Source: Minisyncoccota bacterium
GTDB lineage: Bacteria; Patescibacteriota; Minisyncoccia; Phycocordibacterales; UBA9973
DNA length: 64,000 bases
Direction of reading: 5' to 3'
Assembly: GCA_041661005.1 (NCBI GenBank)
Contig: JBAZVG010000001.1
Span: 543,515-607,514, forward strand
In this document: in pieces, positions 6,347 to 59,816 of the stretch
Numbering within the stretch: position 1 is the stretch's first letter
How the letters are laid out: each line of letters opens with the position of its first letter
Position numbers and translations under genes: made by a program
Notes under the pieces: model-generated
Database searches by the model: none
The model's input: only the letters and a program-made list of their open reading frames with translations
What the model was told of the DNA's origin: nothing

Positions 6347-6784
6347 CTACAACATTTTCACATCAATATCTACACCAGAAGGTAATGACAAATTGGTAAG
6401 GGCCTCAATGGTCTTTGCGTTTGGATTTATAATATCAATCAATCTTTTGTGCACTCGAATCTCAAACTGTTCCCTTGTATTTTTATAAATAAAAGGAGAA
6501 CGATTGACTGTATATTTCTTGATCTCAGTAGGTAGTGGCACAGGACCGACTATCGTCGCATCATGACGAACTGCAGTATCTATAATCTGCTTGACTGAGC
6601 TGTCGAGTATTTTACTCTCATAAGCTCGCACTCGTATGCGAAGTATAACCTCGCCATCTTCCTTTTTTTTCTTTAAAGAAACTTTAGAGACTTTTCCCGC
6701 TTTCTGCGGAACCCCAGAAGAGGTGGTGGTTTTTGCGTCTTTCACCATTTTAGGTTTTTTTATTTTTGTCTCTGTTGTTGTCAT
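6347..6784 (-). CDS. rpsJ: 30S ribosomal protein S10 with ~40-aa Lys-rich N-terminal extension
   Basis: C-terminal ~100 aa are canonical S10 (ILRIRVRAYES...GPVPLPT...EIRVHKRLIDI). The N-terminus is K/T-rich, and the start may be an internal Met. Confidence 0.88.
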   Translation of the reverse strand: MTTTETKIKKPKMVKDAKTTTSSGVPQKAGKVSKVSLKKKKEDGEVILRIRVRAYESKILDSSVKQIIDTAVRHDATIVGPVPLPTEIKKYTVNRSPFIYKNTREQFEIRVHKRLIDIINPNAKTIEALTNLSLPSGVDIDVKML

Positions 6785-12405: not shown

Positions 12406-15400
12406 TTAATTATTGAGATACTCCCTATATGATTTAATTTCTAAATCCGAGATCACATAGCGCGCCAATGCTTTGATAAATGCTCGCGCCAGATGCAAAT
12501 CAGTAAATAAAGGAATTTGATTATCGACCGTAGCCCTTCTGATACGAAAACCATCCGTGATGGTTTTCGCCAAAATTCCACTTTCGTCCTCTTTATTTAA
12601 ATTTATCACAAAAGCCACTTGCTTGCTAAGAATTGCATCGAGAACATTCGGAGATTGCTCGGACGCTTTCCTGACAATTATACAATCTACATTCTTATTT
12701 TTCAAAAACTCTCCGGTCGTATCGGTAGCCAAAATCTTATAATCAAGTTCTATCAACATTCGCGTTGCTTCTAAAAATTTTGCCTTATTCAAGTCTCCTC
12801 CAAGGGAAAGAAGAACAGTTTTCCTATTGAAATCAAATTTGTTGGCGCTTAAAATCGACTTTAGCAAGGCTTCATCATAATCTTTGCCAAAACAAGCCAC
12901 TTCCCCAGTCGAAGACATTTCTACCCGCAAAATAGGATCCGCGCCTGAAAGTCTGGCAAATGAAAATTGTGGCGACTTCACTATTACATTCTCTGGATAT
13001 GTAAATTTATGCATCTTGGCCACGCCCAAAAATGCGTCCACTGCAACTTCAGAAAAATTAACATCCATAGCCTTTGATAACAATGGAAAAGTTCGACTAG
13101 CGCGTAGATTCACTTCGATCACAGATGGGTGATTATCTTTTACTAAAAATTGGATATTGAAAGGTCCGGTGATATTGAGTTCTTTGGCTATTTTTTTAGA
13201 AATTTCACGCAGTTGAAATTCAGTGGAAGCGTAGACGCGCTGAGTTGGAAAAACTATCGTAGCATCGCCTGAATGGACGCCAGCATTTTCCACATGTTCA
13301 GAAATTCCGTAAATCATAATTTCTCCCCCTTGCGCAACCGCATCAAATTCAAGCTCTTTGGCATGTTCTATATATTGAGAAATAGTAACTGGATATCCGG
13401 GAGAAAGTCTGGAGGCTTTCATAATAAAATCCCGCAATTGGCGCTTGTCATAACATACGCTCATAGCAGAACCGGAAAGCACATAAGAAGGTCGCACCAA
13501 AACCGGAAAACCTGTTTTGTCTGTAAATTTGAGAGCTTGAGACATGTTGGTAAAACTCTGCCATCTCGGCTGGGCAATTTGAAGCTTATCTAAAAGCGCT
13601 GAAAAAAGATTGCGATCCTCAGCTTGATTAATATCGAAAGCTTTAGTGCCTAGAATATGAAAACCTTCTTTGGAAAGTTTTTGAGCCAGATTGTTTGGAC
13701 GCTGTCCGCCCACGGAGATGACAAGCCCGTAAGCATTTTCAAATTCAAAAATATCAGCCACAGTTTCAAAAGACAAGTCTTCAAAGTAGAGACGGTCGGA
13801 CATGTCATAATCAGTGGAGACAGTTTCCGGATTGCAGTTTATGATTATAGATTTTTTCTGATGTCGTTTAAATGCCATCGCCGCGTGCACACAAGACCAG
13901 TCAAATTCAACGCTGGAACCTATATGATACGAACCGCTCCCGAGCACCAAAACGGCATCTTTGCCAAATGCGGAAACGTCATTATAATTTGCATGATAAG
14001 TGAGATAAAGATAATTAGTTTTCGCCGGAAATTCTCCAGCCAAAGTATCAATGGCCAGGACTCTTGGTAAAATATTCAGACTTTTTCTTAATTTTCTTAT
14101 TTCTAATTCCTCCTTTCCACAAAGCGCGCCTATTTTTTTGTCGGAAAAGCCGGCTTGCTTTAATTCTAAGACTTTTTCTCTATTTAATTTTTTATTTTTT
14201 GAAAAAGCTTTTTCCATACGAACTATGTTTTCCAATCTAAACAAGAACCACGGATCAATGCCTGTGATTTTATAGATCGAAGCCACAGATGCGCCTTTTT
14301 TCATGGTTTCAGCAATGGCAAATAATCTCTTTGGAGTCGGAATCGATAAAAATTTTTTTAATTCTTTTCCATTTTTGAAACCATTATCAGTCACCCCTCC
14401 CGCTAGTCCGGACTGCATGCGCACTGCTTTTTGGATAGCTTCTTCAAAACTTCGGCCAATAGCCATGACCTCTCCCACCGACTTCATTGCGCTACCAATT
14501 TTTTCTTCCGCGCCCTTAAATTTTTCCAAATCCCATCTGGGCATCTTTACGACTACATAATCGAGCGCCGGCTCAAAAAAACTCTGAGTAACTTTGGTTA
14601 TTTTATTTTTGATTTCTAGCAAGCTGTGTCCGAGCGCAAGTTTTGCCGCTACATACGCGAGCGGATAACCAGTTGCCTTTGAAGCTAGCGCGCTCGAACG
14701 GGAAAGCCGAGCGTTAACTTCGATAACAAAAAAATCTAGCCCCTCACCCCCTCCTCCCCCTCTCCCCGAAGGAGAGGGGGACGGATTTAAGGCATATTGC
14801 ACATTGCACTCTCCGACAATTTTTAGACTCTCAACTATTTTTATGCTTGCCTCTCGCAGTCCGTGATATTCACTATTTGATAAAGTCTGACTCGGTGCCA
14901 CCACAATAGAGTCACCAGTATGGATTCCCAGCGGATCAAAATTTTCCATGTTGCATACTGTAACAATATTTCCAAATCTGTCTCGGACTACTTCATACTC
15001 TATTTCCTTAAAATGATGCAAATATTTTTCTATTAGAACTTGGGGGCTGACAGCTAACGCTCCTTCTACTATTTCCCTTAGATCTCGTTCGTTTTTCGCA
15101 ACACCTGATTTCTGCCCACCCAATGTGAAAGCTGCCCGCACCATTAGCGGGAATCCGATTTCTTTCGCAATTTTTTTCGCCTCTTTCAAATTCGTGGCAG
15201 AGCCAGAAGGTGGCACCGGAATTCCGATTTTTTTTAAATGATCGGCGAAAAACTGACGATCTTCGGTCAATTCAATAGAAGAAATAGGAGAACCAAGAAC
15301 TTGCACATTATATTTTTTCAAAATTCCTTTCTTCTCCAAACTAAGTCCGCAATTTAGCGCTGTCTGTCCGCCAAAAGACAGCATGATTCCGTCCGGGTGT

Positions 15401-23521: not shown

Positions 23522-23540
23522 AAAACAAGAAGGAAATTTT

Positions 23541-23612
23541 TGCCGGTACGGATTTTTTGAAGCTTAAAAAATCCTGAAGTTTTCGGCTCGTCAGCCTCAA
23601 AACCCCTTAAAA
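23541..23612 (-). repeat. Structured repeat, family C copy a (inverted orientation; rpmB / helicase convergent 3' region)
   Basis: Reverse complement reads GGGGTTTTGAG-GCTGACGAGCC-GAAAACTTCAGGATTTTTTAAGCTTCAAAAAATCCGTACCGG. Matches 27389-27455 and 37694-37787 with compensatory changes in the first hairpin. Confidence 0.7.
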
Positions 23613-23642
23613 ACTTCCTTCTTATTTTCTATCTACGGAAAT

Positions 23643-25028
23643 CTACACTGGCACGAAAGTCAGCGCTGTGCCAGCTTTGCCACTTCGGCCGGTTCGGCCG
23701 ATACGATGCACATAGGTGTCGTAAGTTTGAGGCACATCATAGTTTATAACGTGTGTAACATCTGGAATATCAAGCCCCCTAGCGGCAACATCAGTCGCAA
23801 TCAAAATATTAATTTTATCTTGTTTAAATGAATCCAAAATGCGAATACGTTCACGACTTCTTTTGTCACCATGAATTCCGCCCACTTTGAATCCCATTGT
23901 GTGTAATTCTTTGGCGAGCGTATCCACGCTATGTTTCATCTCGCGGAAAATTAAAACCTTTTGGGTCGGACCGCTTGCCCCGCCGTGGCGTGGGTCTTTT
24001 TTCAAGACTTCATGCAACTTTTCTAACTTTTCTTCTTTGGTACGCACGCGAATTACGTCTTGATCAATATTTTTCGCCGTCTCGCCAGAGACGACAGAAA
24101 TAAAAGCTGGATCTTTCAAATATTGCTCAGTCATTTTTCTAATTTCTGGAGAAAGAGTCGCTGAAAAGAAAAGGGTTTGGCGTTCCTTTGCTGTCTTCCC
24201 TATTATAAACACCATATCATCTCGGAATCCCATATCAAGCATTCTGTCAGCTTCATCTAGCACGACACTGTGGCAAGTCGACAAGTCTAAAACTTTTTTC
24301 TCAATCAAGTCTCGCAAACGTCCGGGTGTGCCGATGACAAACGAAACTCCGAGCTTTATTTCCCTAATTTGTTTCATTATCGGCAATCCACCCACACATG
24401 CGACGGAAAACATCCCAAATCCAAAAGCTAGAGTTTTAAAATCACTTTCTATCTGAAGCGCGAGTTCACGAGTCGGCGCCATTATTAAAACTGTCTCTCT
24501 TTTATTTTGTCCTTTTGTTTTAGAAATTTTCTCAATTAAGGGAAGCAAGAAAGCTGCAGTTTTTCCTGTGCCAGTATTTGCCATACCAAAGACATCTTTG
24601 CCGGCTAAAATCGTCGGTATTGCTTGATCTTGAATTGGCCTAGGATTTTCAAAACCAGCTCCTTTTATATTTTTATGAAGTTGTGGATTAAAAGGAAAAT
24701 CGAGAAATGTGTGTCGGGAAACATAAGGTTTTTCCTCCACTCGAACACCTTTTTTAATGAAACGCGAAAAATCTATCCGTTCACCACGAGATCTCTTATT
24801 GCTTGAACGTCTAAAATTGCCCCCGCCTGCAACGCTATGCGTAGCATTGCGGGCAGGTCCAAAACGAGGACGAGAATTATTAAACCTGCCTCGACTTGCG
24901 CTGGACAAGGCGGGTTTTCCACTGCTTGAGTTGTATTTTGCTTTGTGAGCAAAAGTATGACTGCTAAATTTTTTCGGGTTAGCCGAATGGCTCGCCCGTA
25001 GGGCTATGCCCGAGGGATGTTTATACAT
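23643..25028 (-). CDS. DEAD-box ATP-dependent RNA helicase with ~110-aa R/S/G-rich N-terminal region
   Basis: Q motif (FENPRPIQ), motif I (GMANTGTGKT), DEAD (VLDEADRM), SAT, HRIGRTGR. The first ~20 codons overlap a family D mini-palindrome, so the true start is uncertain. Confidence 0.85.
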   Translation of the reverse strand: MYKHPSGIALRASHSANPKKFSSHTFAHKAKYNSSSGKPALSSASRGRFNNSRPRFGPARNATHSVAGGGNFRRSSNKRSRGERIDFSRFIKKGVRVEEKPYVSRHTFLDFPFNPQLHKNIKGAGFENPRPIQDQAIPTILAGKDVFGMANTGTGKTAAFLLPLIEKISKTKGQNKRETVLIMAPTRELALQIESDFKTLAFGFGMFSVACVGGLPIMKQIREIKLGVSFVIGTPGRLRDLIEKKVLDLSTCHSVVLDEADRMLDMGFRDDMVFIIGKTAKERQTLFFSATLSPEIRKMTEQYLKDPAFISVVSGETAKNIDQDVIRVRTKEEKLEKLHEVLKKDPRHGGASGPTQKVLIFREMKHSVDTLAKELHTMGFKVGGIHGDKRSRERIRILDSFKQDKINILIATDVAARGLDIPDVTHVINYDVPQTYDTYVHRIGRTGRSGKAGTALTFVPV

Positions 25029-27360: not shown

Positions 27361-27388
27361 AAAACAAAATTTTTAAAATATAACTTTT

Positions 27389-27455
27389 GGAGGGGTTTTG
27401 AGCGCGACGGCGCGAAAACTTCAGGATTTTTTAAGCTTCAAAAAATCCGTACCGG
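27389..27455 (+). repeat. Structured repeat, family C copy b
   Basis: GGAGGGGTTTTGAG-CGCGACGGCGCG-AAAACTTCAGGATTTTTTAAGCTTCAAAAAATCCGTACCGG. Confidence 0.7.
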
Positions 27456-27482
27456 AAAAAGTTCATATTTTAAAAATTTTGT

Positions 27483-30876: not shown

Positions 30877-31062
30877 TTACAGCAAAATTATTTTTTCCAA
30901 ACCTTTTGAAAAAATAAAATCGAAAATACCCAAATAATACGCTACGATGACAGACAAGACTATGACAATCAAAGTATAATAAAAGGTTTGGCTCCTGTTT
31001 GGCCAAATCACGTGCTTCAATTCTGTCTTTGTTTCTTTAAAATATTCAGTAATTTTTGACAT
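30877..31062 (-). CDS. secE: Preprotein translocase subunit SecE
   Basis: 61 aa, single TM helix, located upstream of nusG. Confidence 0.75.
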   Translation of the reverse strand: MSKITEYFKETKTELKHVIWPNRSQTFYYTLIVIVLSVIVAYYLGIFDFIFSKGLEKIILL

Positions 31063-31140
31063 CCCATTAGAAAATTAAAATAATAAACTTCAACTTTTTT
31101 ACAAGTTCCCTGATTTTCTAACGGGACAAGTAAATTCTTT
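31063..31140 (-). promoter_or_regulatory. Conserved ~75-nt promoter/5'UTR block shared by secE and ruvX
   Basis: Minus strand reads TACTTGTCCCGTTAGAAAATCAGGGAACTTGTAAAAAA...TTATTATTTTAATTTTCTAATGGG-ATG. The ruvX upstream reads TACTTGTCCCGTTAAAAAATCAGCGGACATGTGGAAAG...TTATTATTTTAATTTTTTAATAGG-ATG. Confidence 0.5.
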
Positions 31141-37693: not shown

Positions 37694-37787
37694 TGAAGGG
37701 GTTTCGAGGCTGTCGAGCCGAGAACTTCCCTTGGCCGTCCCGGCACGGGCGAGGCAGGATTTTTTAAGCTTAAAAAAATCCGTACCG
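37694..37787 (+). repeat. Structured repeat, family C copy c (with a 27-nt internal insertion)
   Basis: GAAGGGGTTTCGAG-GCTGTCGAGCC-GAGAACTTCC[insert CTTGGCCGTCCCGGCACGGGCGAGGC]AGGATTTTTTAAGCTTAAAAAAATCCGTACCG. Confidence 0.65.
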
Positions 37788-37799
37788 AAAAAAAATTGA

Positions 37800-40239: not shown

Positions 40240-41280
40240 CTAAATCAAATTAACTTCTGAGGTAAGTTCAAGACCAAATTTTTCTTTTACATCAACGATG
40301 ATTTTATTTGCCAGAGCCAACACTTCTTCTCCTTTTGCTTTACCATAATTTACCAAAACTAACGCTTGTTTTTCATGGACGCCAACATTTCCAAGCCTTT
40401 GTCCTTTCCACCCACATTGTTCGATCAACCATCCAGCTGGGATTTTGACAAGATTATCTTCTTCAAAATACGGCATTTCCGGATATGCTTTTTGCAGTTT
40501 TTTTAATTCCTCCGGTTGTACAAAAATATTTTTAAAAAAACTACCTGCGTTAGGAATGCTAACCGGATCTGGAAGTTTACTCCTGCGTATAGCAGAAACC
40601 GCATTGCTTATATCCCTCGGCCGTAGCCCTACGGGCGAGTCCTTTAAACTTCTGACTTCAATTTTATTTTTCTCTAAATAATCCTGTAAAATTTTATAAG
40701 TTACATTTTTATTTTCTTTTTTACTTAATCGAAGAGTTGTCGCGATAATAAAATATTTTTCCTTTAATTCATTTTTAAAAATACTATCTCGGTAGCCAAG
40801 TTTGCATTCTTCTTTGCTGAAAACCATCTTTTCTCCAGTAATAATATTAATCGTCTCGACATTTTCTAATACATTTTTGAGCTCGACTCCATACGCTCCG
40901 ATATTTTGCATCGGCGCTGCGCCGACTGTCCCCGGGATAAGCGCCAAATTCTCGATGCCCCACAAATCACGTTCCACTGCAAAAGTCACAAGATCGTGCC
41001 AAATCTCTCCGCCCATGGCGCGAACCATAACGGTTTCAGAATTTTCTGATAGAATCTCAATACCTTTCAATTTATTTAAAACAACTAAACCATCGAAATC
41101 TTTAGTAAACAAAACATTGCTCCCTCCGCCGAGAAATAATTTATTGCTGTTTTGAAACTCTTTCGTAGTCAAAAGTTCTTTTAAATCGGCCTCATTCGCG
41201 ATTTCTACAAAAAATTTAGCATTCACCGAAATGCTAAAAGTGTTTAACTTTGACAAATTGTAGTTGTGCTCTATTTTCAC
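40240..41280 (-). CDS. murB: UDP-N-acetylenolpyruvoylglucosamine reductase
   Basis: 346 aa with an FAD-binding PCMH domain (LFLGGGSNVLF) and the MurB C-terminal KLPDP...GSFFKN motif. Contains an in-frame copy of the family D mini-palindrome at 40614-40639 encoding DSPVGLRPRD. Confidence 0.85.
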   Translation of the reverse strand: MKIEHNYNLSKLNTFSISVNAKFFVEIANEADLKELLTTKEFQNSNKLFLGGGSNVLFTKDFDGLVVLNKLKGIEILSENSETVMVRAMGGEIWHDLVTFAVERDLWGIENLALIPGTVGAAPMQNIGAYGVELKNVLENVETINIITGEKMVFSKEECKLGYRDSIFKNELKEKYFIIATTLRLSKKENKNVTYKILQDYLEKNKIEVRSLKDSPVGLRPRDISNAVSAIRRSKLPDPVSIPNAGSFFKNIFVQPEELKKLQKAYPEMPYFEEDNLVKIPAGWLIEQCGWKGQRLGNVGVHEKQALVLVNYGKAKGEEVLALANKIIVDVKEKFGLELTSEVNLI

Positions 41281-55754: not shown

Positions 55755-56195
55755 TCAAATTTTTTGATTCTTTCTATCCAAATATCTTTGTAAGATTATT
55801 GCAGCTGCCTGCGCGTCAATCCGTCCGCTTTTTATTTGCTTTACTTTACTGTGCGCTTGGGACGGATTTAATCCCGCCTTGCTATCTTTCCCTCGCCTAG
55901 CTTCGACTGAAGTCAAAAATTCTTTTTGTTTATGAATGGGCAGTTTAAATTTCTCCTCAAGTTCTAAAATAAAGACTTCTATCCTCCCCGACAGCGCATT
56001 TAATTTTCCAGAAAAATCTACCGACTCCCCTATTATTATTTCTCCAATATTTTCTTGTTCTATGATCTCGCAGAATTTTTTCATGACATTCGAATAATTC
56101 AATATTATTTCTTTCGGAAAAGCAAAAACTCCATTTTCGTCCGAAATAGCCACCCCTATCCTTTTTGTTCCATAATCAATGCCCAGAAATTTCAT
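55755..56195 (-). CDS. ruvX: Holliday-junction resolvase-like protein RuvX/YqgF
   Basis: 146 aa with MKFLGIDYGTKRIGVAISD..., RNase H-like fold. Confidence 0.85.
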   Translation of the reverse strand: MKFLGIDYGTKRIGVAISDENGVFAFPKEIILNYSNVMKKFCEIIEQENIGEIIIGESVDFSGKLNALSGRIEVFILELEEKFKLPIHKQKEFLTSVEARRGKDSKAGLNPSQAHSKVKQIKSGRIDAQAAAIILQRYLDRKNQKI

Positions 56196-56280
56196 CCTAT
56201 TAAAAAATTAAAATAATAATGCTTACTCTTTCCACATGTCCGCTGATTTTTTAACGGGACAAGTATTTTAGATACTAGCA

Positions 56281-56682: not shown

Positions 56683-56758
56683 GGGATGGGTGCCTGAGTG
56701 GTCTAAAGGAACAGTCTTGCCACCGCCTTTGGCGGGGTCCCGCAGTAAGCGGGAAAAA
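56683..56758 (+). other. tRNA-like 5' fragment fused to a conserved hairpin element (pseudo-tRNA / element 1)
   Basis: GGGATGG-GU-GCCUGAGUGGUCUAAAGG-A-ACAGU-CUUG looks like acceptor, D arm and the anticodon stem up to the loop of a class II tRNA. It then diverges into CCGCC-TTT-GGCGG and GTCCCGCAGTAAGCGGGAAAAAC. The latter motif recurs at 57200-57225. Confidence 0.35.
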
Positions 56759-56759
56759 C

Positions 56760-57014
56760 ATGTATATGTTTAAGGTTTATATTTTAAAAAGCTTAAATTA
56801 TAACCGTTACTACATCGGTCATAGTGCAGATGTTGAAAAAAGATTAAGGGAACATAATATTGGAAAGGTTCATTCGACTAAAGCATACAAATCTTGGAAA
56901 ATAGTGTATATTGAGAATAAACCAAGTAAGAAAGAAGCGTACGCTAGGGAAATGCAAATAAAATCTTTCAAACATGGCGAAGCTTTTAAAAAATTAATTG
57001 AAAATAAAATTTAA
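56760..57014 (+). mobile_element. GIY-YIG nuclease family protein (small URI-domain homing-endonuclease-like)
   Basis: 84 aa with MYMFKVYILKSLNYNRYYIGHSADVEKRLREHN...WKIVYIE...EAYAREMQIKS, the GIY-x10-YIG core plus R and E catalytic residues. Confidence 0.75.
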
Positions 57015-57033: not shown

Positions 57034-57122
57034 GGAGGCGTCGCATAGTTGGTCTAGTGCGCTTGTCTTGAAAACAAGTACGCCGCAAGGCGTCGTGAGT
57101 TCGAATCTCACCGCCTCCGCCA
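57034..57122 (+). tRNA. tRNA-Ser(TGA)
   Basis: GGAGGCG-UC-GCAU-AGUUGGUCUA-GUGC-G-CUUGU-CUUGAAA-ACAAG-[UACGCCGCAAGGCGUC]-GUGAG-UUCGAAU-CUCAC-CGCCUCC-G-CCA. Long variable arm, anticodon UGA, encoded CCA. Confidence 0.9.
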
Positions 57123-57300
57123 GAATACCAAGTCTTGTCATCGCCTTCCACGACCCGCCGAAGGCGGAGTCTCGCCTACGGCGGGACGAGTCGGCGAGAT
57201 CCCGCAGTAAAGCGGGAAAAACTATCGGGAGAAATCCCTTAGAGGTTCTCATTCCCTAGGCAGATCCGCCTTGGGCGGAGACTCCTCTGTCATCCGCAAA
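57123..57300 (+). other. Hairpin-rich element 2 following tRNA-Ser (paralogous to element 1)
   Basis: Begins AAGTCTTGTCATCGCC (compare element 1 CAGTCTTGCCACCGCC). Contains CCGCC-GAA-GGCGG, CCGCC-TTG-GGCGG and GATCCCGCAGTAAAGCGGGAAAAAC. Bounded by TGTCATC(G/C) at both ends. Confidence 0.35.
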
Positions 57301-57341: not shown

Positions 57342-57926
57342 ATGCAGAAAAAATTCGAAAAACTCCTAGATTTTGTAAGATTCATGCACGAGTTTAGAGA
57401 GATCGTTAGATATGAGGGTTCAAAACTCGGCAAAAAAGTTGAAACTGATTCGGAACATAGTTATCAAGTTGCAATGGTTGCTTGGTTTTTGATTGATGAG
57501 AATAATTTAAAATTGAACAAGGAACTTTGCTTAATGTATTCACTAACTCATGATTTAGTGGAAGTTTACGCCGGAGACACGTTTGTCTTTGACAAAAAAA
57601 GGTTATCCTCACAACATGAAAGAGAGAAAGGGGCATTAATAAAAATCAAAAAAAGATTTCCCTATTTTAATAATCTGATCAAAATAATAGAAAATTATGA
57701 AAAAAAAGAAGATGGAGAAAGTAAATTCATCTATGCGGTAGATAAAATAATCTCACCACTTCAAATATACATAGAAGGAGGAAAATTATGGCATGAAAAG
57801 AAGGTTTCTTTTTTAGATGCGTTCGAAAACAAGGATAAAAAGATTGCTGTATCTTCGGATGTATATAAATATTGGCAAGAACTTCTGAAAGAATTCAAAA
57901 AAAACAAAAAGATGTTTTACAATTAG
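57342..57926 (+). CDS. HD-domain phosphohydrolase (YfbR-like 5'-deoxynucleotidase family)
   Basis: 194 aa with ...SEHSYQVAMVAW...LTHDLVEVYAGD..., the HD motif arrangement of the YfbR family. Confidence 0.7.
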   Translation: MQKKFEKLLDFVRFMHEFREIVRYEGSKLGKKVETDSEHSYQVAMVAWFLIDENNLKLNKELCLMYSLTHDLVEVYAGDTFVFDKKRLSSQHEREKGALIKIKKRFPYFNNLIKIIENYEKKEDGESKFIYAVDKIISPLQIYIEGGKLWHEKKVSFLDAFENKDKKIAVSSDVYKYWQELLKEFKKNKKMFYN

Positions 57927-58283
57927 TTTAACGTCTGATTAAGCCTTATTCCTCAACAACCAGTTCCAACAGCGTACCCCTCGGTCGTAGCCCTACGGGT
58001 GAGACAAACTGCCTTCGCCTGCCAAAAGGTTTGTAAAGACCACATATATTGTTACACTGTAAAAAAAATAGACAAAAGATATCTAATCTGTTATACTAGC
58101 GGAGTTGAATTTTAGAAATTTATTTTAATTCGGTTTAGGGGAATATTCCATATATTATGAAGTGTTTAAAGCAAAATTTTCCACGCCACGGCGAGGTAAA
58201 TAAAATCTTTTTTAACGTACGCTTTGGGCTAGGGACAAATCCATAAATATAGGGACATGTTCTTGTAAGCTGACATAAAGCTT

Positions 58284-59816
58284 ATGAGCATAACACTGAT
58301 AACAATTTTTATAAGCGCAGGAGCGCTCCTTTTGGGTGTCGGCATCGGATACTATCTCCGCTTGATTATTGCATTGGGGAAAAGACGGTCAATTGAAATC
58401 GATATCAAGCAGATGATGGTGAGCGCAAAAGAGGAAGCACAAAAAATAACAGATGAGGCAAAAAAGACATCAGAGTCCAAACTTGCAGAGTTGAAAGAAG
58501 AAGAAAAAAAGAAAGAGCAGGAGTTTCGAGAGAGGGATATGAGGCTCATTAAAAAAGATGAGTTTCTTGATGCTCGACAGATCGAAATAGACAAAGAGGT
58601 TGAAAATATCAAAACGAGAGTAGAAGAAGTAAAAAAGATTCAAGAAAAAGTAGTAAAGGTAGAGGAAGAAAAAAGGACAGAATTGGAAAGAGTGTCAAAA
58701 TTAACACAAGAAGAAGCGAAGGAAGAACTCTTGCGAGATATCGAAAAGAAATATGAGGAAGACATCTTGACCAGAATTCAAAAACTTGAAAATAGCAACC
58801 AAGAAAAACTGGATCGTAGAGCAAAAGACATATTGGCCACAAGCATCCAACGCTTGGCTTCAAGCACAGCCTCGGAACTCATGACAACTGTGGTTTCTAT
58901 TCCCAACAACGAAATCAAAGGAAAGATAATCGGAAAAGAAGGCAGAAACATCAGAGCCTTTGAAAGGGCATCTGGGGTGGAACTCATTGTGGATGATACT
59001 CCCGGCTCCATTGTCATATCTTCATTCGATCCAATCAGAAGGCAGGTGGCAAGGCTTGCGCTAGAAAATTTGATTTTAGACGGACGTATTCAACCGGCAA
59101 AGATAGAGGAGTTAGTGGAAAAAGCAAAAGAGGAGATAAATAAAATCATTAAAGAAAAAGGTGAACAAGCGGTTTATGAATGTGGAATATTAAATTTCGA
59201 TCCACGCATCATTGCAATCATTGGACGATTGTATTTCCGTACAAGTTATGGACAAAATGTTCTTCAACATTCCATCGAGATGGCGCACATCGCCGGAATG
59301 CTCGCTGAAGAACTCGGCGCAGATGTGGCTATTGCCAAAGCCGGCGCGCTTGTTCACGACATCGGTAAGGCTCTCGATCATGAAGTACAAGGCACGCACA
59401 TCGAGATAGGTATTAGAATCCTGCAGAAATTCGGCGCTGATGAACGCATTATCACTGCAATGAAAAGTCACCATGAAGACTACCCCTATGAGACTATCGA
59501 GTCCATTATCGTTCAAACTGCCGACTCTATCTCCGGCGGACGACCTGGAGCTCGCCGAGATTCAGTAGAAAATTACCTAAAGAGACTCCAAGAATTGGAA
59601 GCATTAGTAAACACCTTCCCTGCAGTAGAGAAATCATATGCTTTGCAAGCTGGCCGTGAAATCCGCATCTTTGTTACCCCAGAAAAGATCTCTGATGCCG
59701 AAGCTAAGATCATGGCTCGCGATATAGCGTTAAAAATAGAGCAAGAACTAAAATACCCAGGTGAAATCAAGGTCACAATGATCCGTGAACTCAGGGTTAT
59801 AGAATACGCGAGGTAG
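58284..59816 (+). CDS. rny: Ribonuclease Y
   Basis: 510 aa with an N-terminal TM, coiled-coil, KH domain (IGKEGRNIRAFE), and HD domain (HSIEMAHIAG...VHDIGKA). Confidence 0.9.
   Translation: MSITLITIFISAGALLLGVGIGYYLRLIIALGKRRSIEIDIKQMMVSAKEEAQKITDEAKKTSESKLAELKEEEKKKEQEFRERDMRLIKKDEFLDARQIEIDKEVENIKTRVEEVKKIQEKVVKVEEEKRTELERVSKLTQEEAKEELLRDIEKKYEEDILTRIQKLENSNQEKLDRRAKDILATSIQRLASSTASELMTTVVSIPNNEIKGKIIGKEGRNIRAFERASGVELIVDDTPGSIVISSFDPIRRQVARLALENLILDGRIQPAKIEELVEKAKEEINKIIKEKGEQAVYECGILNFDPRIIAIIGRLYFRTSYGQNVLQHSIEMAHIAGMLAEELGADVAIAKAGALVHDIGKALDHEVQGTHIEIGIRILQKFGADERIITAMKSHHEDYPYETIESIIVQTADSISGGRPGARRDSVENYLKRLQELEALVNTFPAVEKSYALQAGREIRIFVTPEKISDAEAKIMARDIALKIEQELKYPGEIKVTMIRELRVIEYAR

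Follow-up and report, generated by a model that had tools for sequence, protein, structure and literature searches.

Family D, a 28-nucleotide repeat inserted in and between genes of Patescibacteria, as a probable non-autonomous mobile element

The Rickettsia palindromic elements (RPEs) are repeats of about 100-150 bp, confined to Rickettsia, that are palindromic and are inserted in frame in unrelated housekeeping genes as well as between genes; several families are present per genome, and the added peptide is compatible with the fold of the host protein (PMC10969869). Here we describe family D, a repeat with a conserved block of 28 nt that is present in the murB gene, in a DEAD-box helicase gene and in an intergenic region within a 64,000-nt stretch of the genome of a Minisyncoccota bacterium (contig JBAZVG010000001.1 of assembly GCA_041661005.1, positions 543,515 to 607,514; hereafter, the window). 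The first-pass annotation of this DNA likened the repeat to RPEs, and the likeness holds for its behavior, that of a palindromic repeat found in frame in coding genes and also outside them. It does not extend to membership in the RPE families: the family D insert is 27 nt long, about five times shorter, its sequence is unrelated, it occurs in many lineages of Patescibacteria, and it is conserved at the nucleotide level across distant hosts. The observations described below make it probable that family D is a non-autonomous mobile element, with a 28-nt block and a 27-nt insert, that has been copied widely in Patescibacteria of the Parcubacteria/Paceibacteria type.

In size, family D is closer to the small dispersed repeats (SDRs) of heterocystous cyanobacteria and to the GC clusters of yeast mitochondria than to RPEs. 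The SDRs, the subject of work by Elhai et al. in 2008, are reportedly 21-27 nt long, in some cases with inverted repeats, present or absent in homologous sequences, and nested; we know of no enzyme that moves them. Family D falls in the same size class, is likewise present or absent in homologous sequences and is likewise nested, but this is a likeness of kind only: the phylum and the sequences are different, and SDRs are not known to be mostly in-frame insertions in coding sequence or to share the covarying terminal helix and the identity across lineages of family D. The GC42 cluster of yeast mitochondria is a short, GC-rich, mobile hairpin in an AT-rich genome, 42 bp long and fast-evolving, with substitutions concentrated in the loop, merging and nesting of copies, duplication of an AG target and a mostly intergenic location (PMC4478555). 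Family D is also a GC-rich hairpin element with a constrained structure and nested copies, but it is 27 nt long, is inserted without duplication and resides mostly in genes. Repetitive extragenic palindromic (REP) elements, REPINs included, are imperfect palindromes that are rich in G+C, measure only about 20-35 nt and contain GTAG/CTAC tetranucleotides; they are long-lived in a lineage and thought to move in single-stranded form via an HUH tyrosine enzyme (in part, PMC3116915). Family D is similarly a short, GC-rich, imperfect palindrome with GTAG/CTAC. However, REPs are extragenic, often arranged in doublets and located beside a gene for a REP-associated tyrosine transposase (RAYT), whereas family D is single and mostly intragenic (107 of about 127 classifiable copies in long open reading frames, or ORFs), and GTAG lies at the foot of the REP palindrome but GTAG/CTAC are in the apical stem of family D. 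The palindromic amphipathic repeat coding elements (PARCELs) are reported to be palindromic coding repeats that are readable in either orientation and horizontally distributed (PMC2996958); they differ from family D in being much longer, in forming intragenic tandem repeats in surface proteins and in coding for amphipathic segments. Miniature inverted-repeat transposable elements are 50-500 bp long, have terminal inverted repeats and a target-site duplication and derive from an insertion sequence, whereas family D is 27 nt long, shows no target duplication and has no parent insertion sequence that we could see. Full-text literature searches yielded no published description of family D or of its peptides.

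Alignment of 159 unique copies with different flanks, pooled from species-representative assemblies and metagenomes that were searched with the exact pattern CTCGGNCGTAGCCCTACGGGNGAG, delineates a conserved block of exactly 28 nt, CC-CTCGG-X-CGTAGCCCTACGGG-Y-GAG-Z-C, in which the initial CC and the final C are invariant and outside of which the base composition is that of the background. The motif, originally given as 26-28 nt, thus acquires fixed ends, being extended by a 5' CC and a 3' ZC. Three canonical copies are present in the window (Table 1), with CCCTCGGCCGTAGCCCTACGGGCGAG on the plus strand at 40614-40639, the reverse complement of this motif, with a single mismatch in the core (CATAG for CGTAG), at 24991-25016, and the T/T variant on the plus strand at 57977-58003. 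The sequences of all three sites are as first reported, and translation of the ORFs upheld the orientations and reading frames assigned in murB and the helicase gene. The assertion that chance recurrence is negligible also withstood scrutiny: the 14-nt core, with up to 2 mismatches allowed, has 3 matches in the window against 0.06 expected, and none of 100 shuffled sequences reached 3, so that chance was ruled out. A scan of the window with up to 9 mismatches added the diverged copy of Table 1 as the sole further relative.

Beyond the window, the exact core was detected in 66 stretches from 47 species-representative Patescibacteria assemblies and in at least 120 metagenome stretches among the matches listed. 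Nearly all carrier assemblies have Parcubacteria-type names or generic Patescibacteria labels, the lineage names including Nomura-, Kaiser-, Adler-, Staskawicz-, Giovannoni- and Uhrbacteria, Paceibacterota and the like; the labels 'Gammaproteobacteria', Edwardsbacteria and Neomarinimicrobiota on some carrier bins could not be confirmed, and one locus labeled 'Saccharibacteria' is clearly of the Nomurabacteria type. The unit is likewise placed in various contexts in many genomes, its copies being oriented either way, read in any of four frames or located between genes. An assembly contains 1-8 exact copies, and the density of the element is about one per 16-70 kb, with four copies in the 64-kb window. 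Identical 28-mers are found in host loci with G+C contents from 29% to 67%, so that family D is more than a GC island of AT-rich genomes. Carriage by phages was rejected given that 2.9 million viral contigs contain no match to the exact core.

The copies fall into three main sub-families that we denote by the bases at X/Y/Z, namely G/C/C (90 copies), C/C/G (40 copies) and T/T/A (15 copies), and in 152 of the 159 copies, X and Z are Watson-Crick complements of each other. Adenine is never seen at X, metagenomes included, and adenine mutagenesis of the type found in diversity-generating retroelements was rejected on these grounds as the origin of the variable positions.

Comparison of filled and empty sites reveals a net insert of 27 nt at the resolved cases, which are murB, the dihydrofolate reductase (DHFR) gene, the helicase gene, an intergenic repeat and the nested copies. 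The window MurB and helicase are each 100% identical to an NCBI Paceibacterota protein. Against a basic MurB length of 337 aa in the clade, the site of the insert is empty (KNSK|DIS) in 108 of 120 close homologues and holds a 9-aa insert in the other 12, the window protein reading ...SLK-DSPVGLRPR-DISNAV...KLPDP. The nucleotide sequence is AAA|GAT (K|D) where the insert is lacking, and the filled sites contain 27 extra nt of recognizably the same sequence, intact or decayed. The first-pass annotation called for an alignment of orthologues as a test of lineage-specific insertion, and the outcome for murB is in its favor; it named identical amino acids encoded by unrelated nucleotides as the contrary outcome, and the filled sites share the nucleotide sequence and not only the peptide. 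All 12 filled alleles belong to one sub-family, which argues against many independent hits, and with no target motif in the flanks of the 159 copies, repeated insertion at the murB site is unlikely.

The DHFR gene is filled in loci L006, L018 and L030 (FES-LGRSPTGEP-IGKPLP) and empty in L072 and L075 (FESIGKPLP), a difference of 27 nt. In the helicase, the N-terminus MY(K/T)xHSxxPKKF is present in about 100 of 120 homologues, and only the window copy (MYK-HPSGIALRAS-HSANPKKF) has 9 extra residues, indicating a recent insertion. Because MYK and SHSANPKKF are kept around the insert, the start codon lies upstream and the copy is inside the coding sequence; the reservation, voiced when the motif was first noticed, that this copy might be merely intergenic is thereby removed, and the insert is in frame and lineage-specific. 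An intergenic repeat with three copies is filled in one of them, by the diverged relative at 37728 (27 nt), and empty in the other two (AACTTC|AGGATT), and since this site is intergenic, the length of 27 nt is not imposed by the reading frame. Given that 28 positions are conserved but 27 are added, one terminal C is apparently shared with the target; there is no target-site duplication. The six resolved junctions all read T^C; among all copies, however, T is the preceding base in only about 31%, and we do not take T^C as a rule. The flanks of the 159 copies contain no strong target consensus.

Family D also shows a liking for other palindromes. In two places, the sub-family CCCTCGGCA(G/A)TAGACCTACGGGCGATG is nested within a resident copy of matching orientation, at AGCT^CTAC of its apical loop: in murB of L067 and in an unrelated gene that has the nested form in L183 and the resident copy only in the orthologue L151. 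Other forms of clustering include head-to-tail neighbors, compound copies, copies within other repeat families, and intergenic mosaics with other hairpins.

Most copies are located within genes: 107 of the 159 (about 84% of the classifiable ones) lie in ORFs that run for at least 150 codons from stop to stop, about 20 are clearly located between genes, and the remainder are ambiguous. Four frames are used by the 107 gene-borne copies, F0 (peptide LGRSPTGE, 59 copies), R2 (SPVGLRPR, 29), F2 (PSGVALRAS, 10) and R0 (LARRATPEG, 9); the two remaining frames contain TAG, and there are no gene-borne copies in either. Being 9 codons long with four stop-free frames, a copy that lands in a tolerant protein loop survives as a translated 9-aa insert. 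In the AlphaFold model of the window MurB (mean pLDDT 82), residues 214-222 form a coil before the helix 221-235, with pLDDT below 50 at 214-217; such a low-confidence coil in a predicted structure is what a tolerated loop insert would be expected to look like. A tiny intervening sequence that is removed from the mRNA and leaves the host proteins unaffected would also be conserved at the nucleotide level in essential genes, through the requirements of splicing. Stop frames should then be tolerated, yet among the 159 copies there is a single case, and a marginal one, in which a long ORF reappears once the 27 nt are deleted, which indicates that the insert is translated and that stop-frame insertions are purged; moreover, both orientations are found in genes, and the ends of the element cannot pair with conserved exon sequence, the flanks being random. 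With no gene-borne copy in a stop frame, a mini-intron of this kind was rejected as exceedingly improbable. In L028/L099/L139, L087 and L131, two family D copies are located 99-111 nt apart in one long ORF, both in frame F0; such a pair may reflect the duplication of a stretch of protein together with its insert.

Translation of the inserts and their location in exposed loops would also suit a peptide module (LGRSPTGE, SPVGLRPR and others) selected for a function in the host proteins. However, the same DNA is read in four frames into unrelated peptides and is found between genes as well. Furthermore, the changes in the murB element are distributed evenly over codon positions 1, 2 and 3 (6/8/6), so that the peptide is not what is conserved, and third positions are far better kept than those in the rest of the gene. 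Peptide-level selection, scarcely credible given the four frames and the even distribution of changes, was rejected.

Individual copies are indeed conserved in their nucleotides. In pairwise comparisons of ten insert-bearing murB genes, the 27 nt of the element are 63-96% identical, against 35-56% identity at synonymous third positions, which are saturated; between the window gene and P0115, the element is identical at 26 of 27 positions, against 0.37 at synonymous third positions. The element in DHFR is 26-27/27 identical (0.26-0.47 at synonymous positions), and in at least 14 orthologous clusters, which, as exact-match clusters, were ascertained for intactness, the 28-mers are identical between flanks that are 68-88% identical. 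With a 26/27 match across saturated silent sites, neutral descent is impossible, and the recent exchange of a longer stretch of murB that included the insert was rejected because the codons directly beside the element differ at silent sites. Some lineages have let the murB element decay (P0003 and P0008).

The repeat, first described as a mini-palindrome, has the look of a hairpin, CTCG.CCGTA-GCCC-TACGG.CGAG, but palindromy accounts for just part of its anatomy, and the C/C/G sub-family is the only one with a notably stable fold (DNA z = -4.3). The commonest sub-family, G/C/C, folds like shuffled sequences (z of -0.1 to -0.4), and among the 32 distinct 28-mers on which covariation was counted, no pair of the long palindrome has changed on both sides and pairing is no higher than in shuffles. 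The long hairpin was accordingly rejected as the selected structure. The minimum-energy fold of the G/C/C sub-family pairs G5-X6-C7 with G24-Z25-C26. The pair 6:25 is CG, GC or UA; the pair 7:24, an independent check of the idea drawn from 6:25, is CG (25 sequences), UA (5) or AU (2), and is unpaired in 0 of the 32 distinct sequences. This 3-bp helix, 5-7/24-26, accumulates 18 double-change cells, against 4.9±1.8 in shuffles, and 0 of 500 shuffles reach 18. It is kept in every sub-family that has spread, and in one pair of diverged orthologues, the element differs solely by a joint flip of X and Z. Covariation thus speaks for a 3-bp helix between an internal trinucleotide and the 3' end, and not for a long palindrome. 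GTAG and CTAC, which form the apical stem, are nearly invariant, and the most variable positions are C12 and C13, in the apical loop. Correspondence to a known RNA family was rejected: with Rfam 15, only tRNAs match in the window, and the surroundings of two intergenic copies (including 57927-58283) gave no match at E<=1.

The pattern of conservation could bring to mind a DNA-uptake signal (DNA uptake sequence or uptake signal sequence) that was accumulated and homogenized through the preference of the competence machinery. Such a signal would be conserved at the nucleotide level, with orthologous sites common to several species, the three sub-families could be its 'dialects', and it could occupy several frames of coding DNA; furthermore, Patescibacteria are thought to be dependent on DNA uptake. 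Nevertheless, we regard this explanation as very improbable. Known uptake signals occur about once per kb, far more densely than family D with its few exact copies per assembly and its four copies in the window, and the 25 fixed positions make family D far longer than the known signals. The copies arise as 27-nt insertions rather than via point mutation, the silent sites that flank the element are not co-converted, and single-strand covariation is unexpected for a site recognized by a receptor as a duplex.

An unlikely explanation, albeit one that calls for serious consideration, is that family D is a host-useful, cis-acting DNA or RNA site that is bound by a Paceibacteria-wide protein and kept by purifying selection, with a possible role in chromosome organization, replication or repair, or mRNA processing. 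The nucleotide-level conservation with sharp boundaries next to saturated synonymous sites, the identity of 28-mers in lineages with G+C from 0.29 to 0.67, the low copy number per genome and the lack of exact copies in viral contigs are all in line with this possibility, which could moreover be compatible with an origin by insertion, the site being a mobile element that was subsequently domesticated. However, the positions of the copies look haphazard, in loops of unrelated housekeeping proteins, in both orientations and four frames; most orthologues lack the element, and decay is seen in the two homologues mentioned above; many other insert families behave alike in the same genes; the covariation points to the fold of a single strand, not to a site that is bound as a duplex; and the nesting of copies in copies is typical of mobile DNA.

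Should family D be a mobile element, as we consider probable, it would be mobilized in trans as a single strand, by machinery that reads the single-strand fold, that is, the apical hairpin and the terminal helix, and only variants that keep the helix would have founded new sub-families. Insertion would join the element to a target C, possibly chosen by pairing with G5, such that one nucleotide is shared and none is duplicated, and the helix would pair the 3' end, the last C of which may be that of the target, with the three nucleotides that immediately precede the apical hairpin. In the IS200/IS605 family, as studied with IS608, a sub-terminal hairpin is combined with a 5' guide that pairs with the cleavage or target site, and insertion occurs without duplication beside a short specific sequence. 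Family D may resemble these elements and their miniature derivatives, the palindrome-associated transposable elements: the helix 5-7/24-26 is at the analogous place, where it might act as such a guide, and no target is duplicated, but a T before the shared C, common to the six resolved junctions, is seen in only about 31% of all copies. In contrast, IS200/IS605 elements have two unlike ends hundreds of bases apart and a tnpA gene, whereas family D is a single 27-nt unit that would need to act as both ends, and the pairing register of its helix may differ. Because the guide-like layout recalls the ends of IS200/IS605 and GTAG/CTAC recall the heads of REPs, an HUH tyrosine enzyme would, by analogy, be the first candidate for the mobilizer, although quite a doubtful one.

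Several observations weigh against a mobile element. There is no sign of a mobilizing gene: nothing relevant adjoins the intergenic copies, with no RAYT near them, a tblastn search for Y1 transposases, TnpA and RAYT among them, in 1.4 Mb of loci around the copies, with manually typed query sequences, returned no match, and a domain scan of 10 selected window ORFs detected only a GIY-YIG gene and RuvX. The copy number per genome is low, no insertion polymorphism at the population level was seen inside a species, and one intergenic case points to 26 nt, not 27, as the length of the net insert. The 12 filled murB alleles, all of one sub-family, are scattered across a poorly resolved tree, and the homologues were ranked with the insert in the query, which favors well-kept inserts; the covariation counts are inflated by shared descent, the covarying sub-families being few. 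Above all, the strong conservation of individual old copies is not predicted for a purely selfish element. It could result from selection on a DNA or RNA motif, in which case the copies would be domesticated sites, or from fresh copies that are directed at resident ones and replace them time and again, a process that self-nesting and the X/Z switch make conceivable.

Table 1. Family D copies in the 64-kb window and the features that contain them
Feature	Coordinates	Strand	Description
Canonical copy 1	40614-40641	+	Sub-family C/C/G, Z=T; antisense to murB, read as DSPVGLRPR, MurB residues 214-222
Canonical copy 2	24989-25016	-	Sub-family G/C/C with G8>A; sense in the DEAD-box helicase, codons 5-13, PSGIALRAS
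Canonical copy 3	57978-58005	+	Sub-family T/T/A; intergenic, between the HD-domain gene and the 510-aa ORF
Diverged relative	37728-37755	+	CCCTTGGCCGTCCCGGCACGGGCGAGGC; ends and terminal helix as in family D, apex different; 6 mismatches
murB (UDP-N-acetylmuramate dehydrogenase)	40240-41280	-	Host of copy 1; Pfam PF01565 and PF02873
DEAD-box helicase	23643-25028	-	Host of copy 2; two other GC-rich inserts also present
Intergenic repeat hosting the diverged copy	37697-37797	+	Family GGGGTTTTGAG...CAGGATTTTTTAAGCTT...; paralogues 27382-27463 (+) and 23535-23616 (-)

The intergenic canonical copy is located 52 nt past the stop of the HD-domain gene (57342-57926) and 279 nt ahead of the 510-aa ORF at 58284-59816, which, judging by its sequence, is read as a putative RNase Y. 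The repeat that hosts the diverged copy belongs to a family of about 80 nt that consists of GGGGTTTTGAG, a short variable GC hairpin and AAAACTTCAGGATTTTTTAAGCTT(C/A)AAAAAATCCGTACCG; its three copies in the window (Table 1) lie at gene ends, the one at 37697-37797 being upstream of rplJ, and the family may be a bidirectional terminator.

Family D is encountered within or beside other repeats as well. In JBAZWW01 (L011, L022, L023, L034 and L063), there are several copies of a palindromic repeat of about 100 nt, CCTGAGCGAGAGCGAAGGATCCGAC ... GTCGGATCCTTCGCATGGCTCAGG; every copy contains the core of family D, situated at either of two places within the repeat. In L103, L117, L179 and L193, intergenic mosaics contain family D beside the hairpin CTTCTCCCCnnnGGGGAGAAGG, which resembles the window sequence at 14735-14785; these mosaics recall the mosaic arrangement of REP-type elements. 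No other repeat family of the same design in the loci around the copies is abundant enough for a test.

Both host genes are subject to further insertions, in the window or in relatives. The helicase gene contains additional GC-rich in-frame inserts at approximately 24806-24850 and 23960-24000. The insert PARNATHSVAGGG is common to a few homologues, and the insert PRHGGASGPTQ is identical in P0124 and P0140; at the second site, KKD|KVLIF, other orthologues have different inserts, such as LPAxAGxxPMK, indicating that different families hit the same helicase loop. At other loops, the MurB homologues P0002-P0120 have at least eight further types of short inserts (SARGGSAYGGK, PARNASHSDAGG, SARNAPGIAGAGR, ETSPQPSPGRRG, PTDTEAMAGK, LPAQAGQEG, PRDGTS and KNGSKASV), so that in-frame mini-inserts look general in these genomes. 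Relatives have a bAvd gene together with a reverse transcriptase gene (RVT_1), a combination that looks like a diversity-generating retroelement, and in two genomes an RVT_1 gene is directly upstream of murB (loci L075, 5124-6543; L068, 1-951; L070, 1-968).

Elsewhere in the window, a gene for an 84-aa GIY-YIG nuclease (56760-57014; Pfam E=1.6e-14) adjoins tRNA-Ser (57034-57122) and is surrounded by GC-rich hairpins at 56714-56755, 57137-57207 and 57254-57289, one of which is the inverted partner of 6692-6729 (38 nt, 82% complementary). The segments 31060-31132 and 56193-56265 form a 73-nt direct repeat, 79% identical and AT-rich, that ends with CTGATTTT(C/T)TAACGGGACAAGTA.

Family D is ordinary in kind; what is unusual is its size, its radiation-wide reach, its strict conservation in essential genes and its covariation. 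Two forms of a bolder interpretation are conceivable, if on balance not likely: family D would be a self-contained, 27-nt, single-strand replicator, in which an internal trinucleotide acts as a guide through pairing with both the target C and the 3' end of the element, and which re-enters resident copies by preference, or, alternatively, a domesticated site read by undescribed, radiation-wide machinery. Re-entry into resident copies, if real, would explain the near-unchanged copies in essential genes across Paceibacteria, a nucleotide-level conservation that is hard to reconcile with a purely selfish element, and, of the mobile elements known to use a guide, the single-strand replicator would be the smallest. 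Leads toward the enzyme, in organisms that are uncultivable, come from the covariation of the terminal helix and from the self-nesting. If family D is mobile, as appears probable, it would be a tractable case for studying the lower size limit of mobile DNA, and proteins across a large part of the candidate phyla radiation would be peppered with translated 9-aa inserts of mobile DNA (the murB and helicase orthologues alone display about ten different insert types), affecting the alignment, annotation and structure prediction of these proteins.

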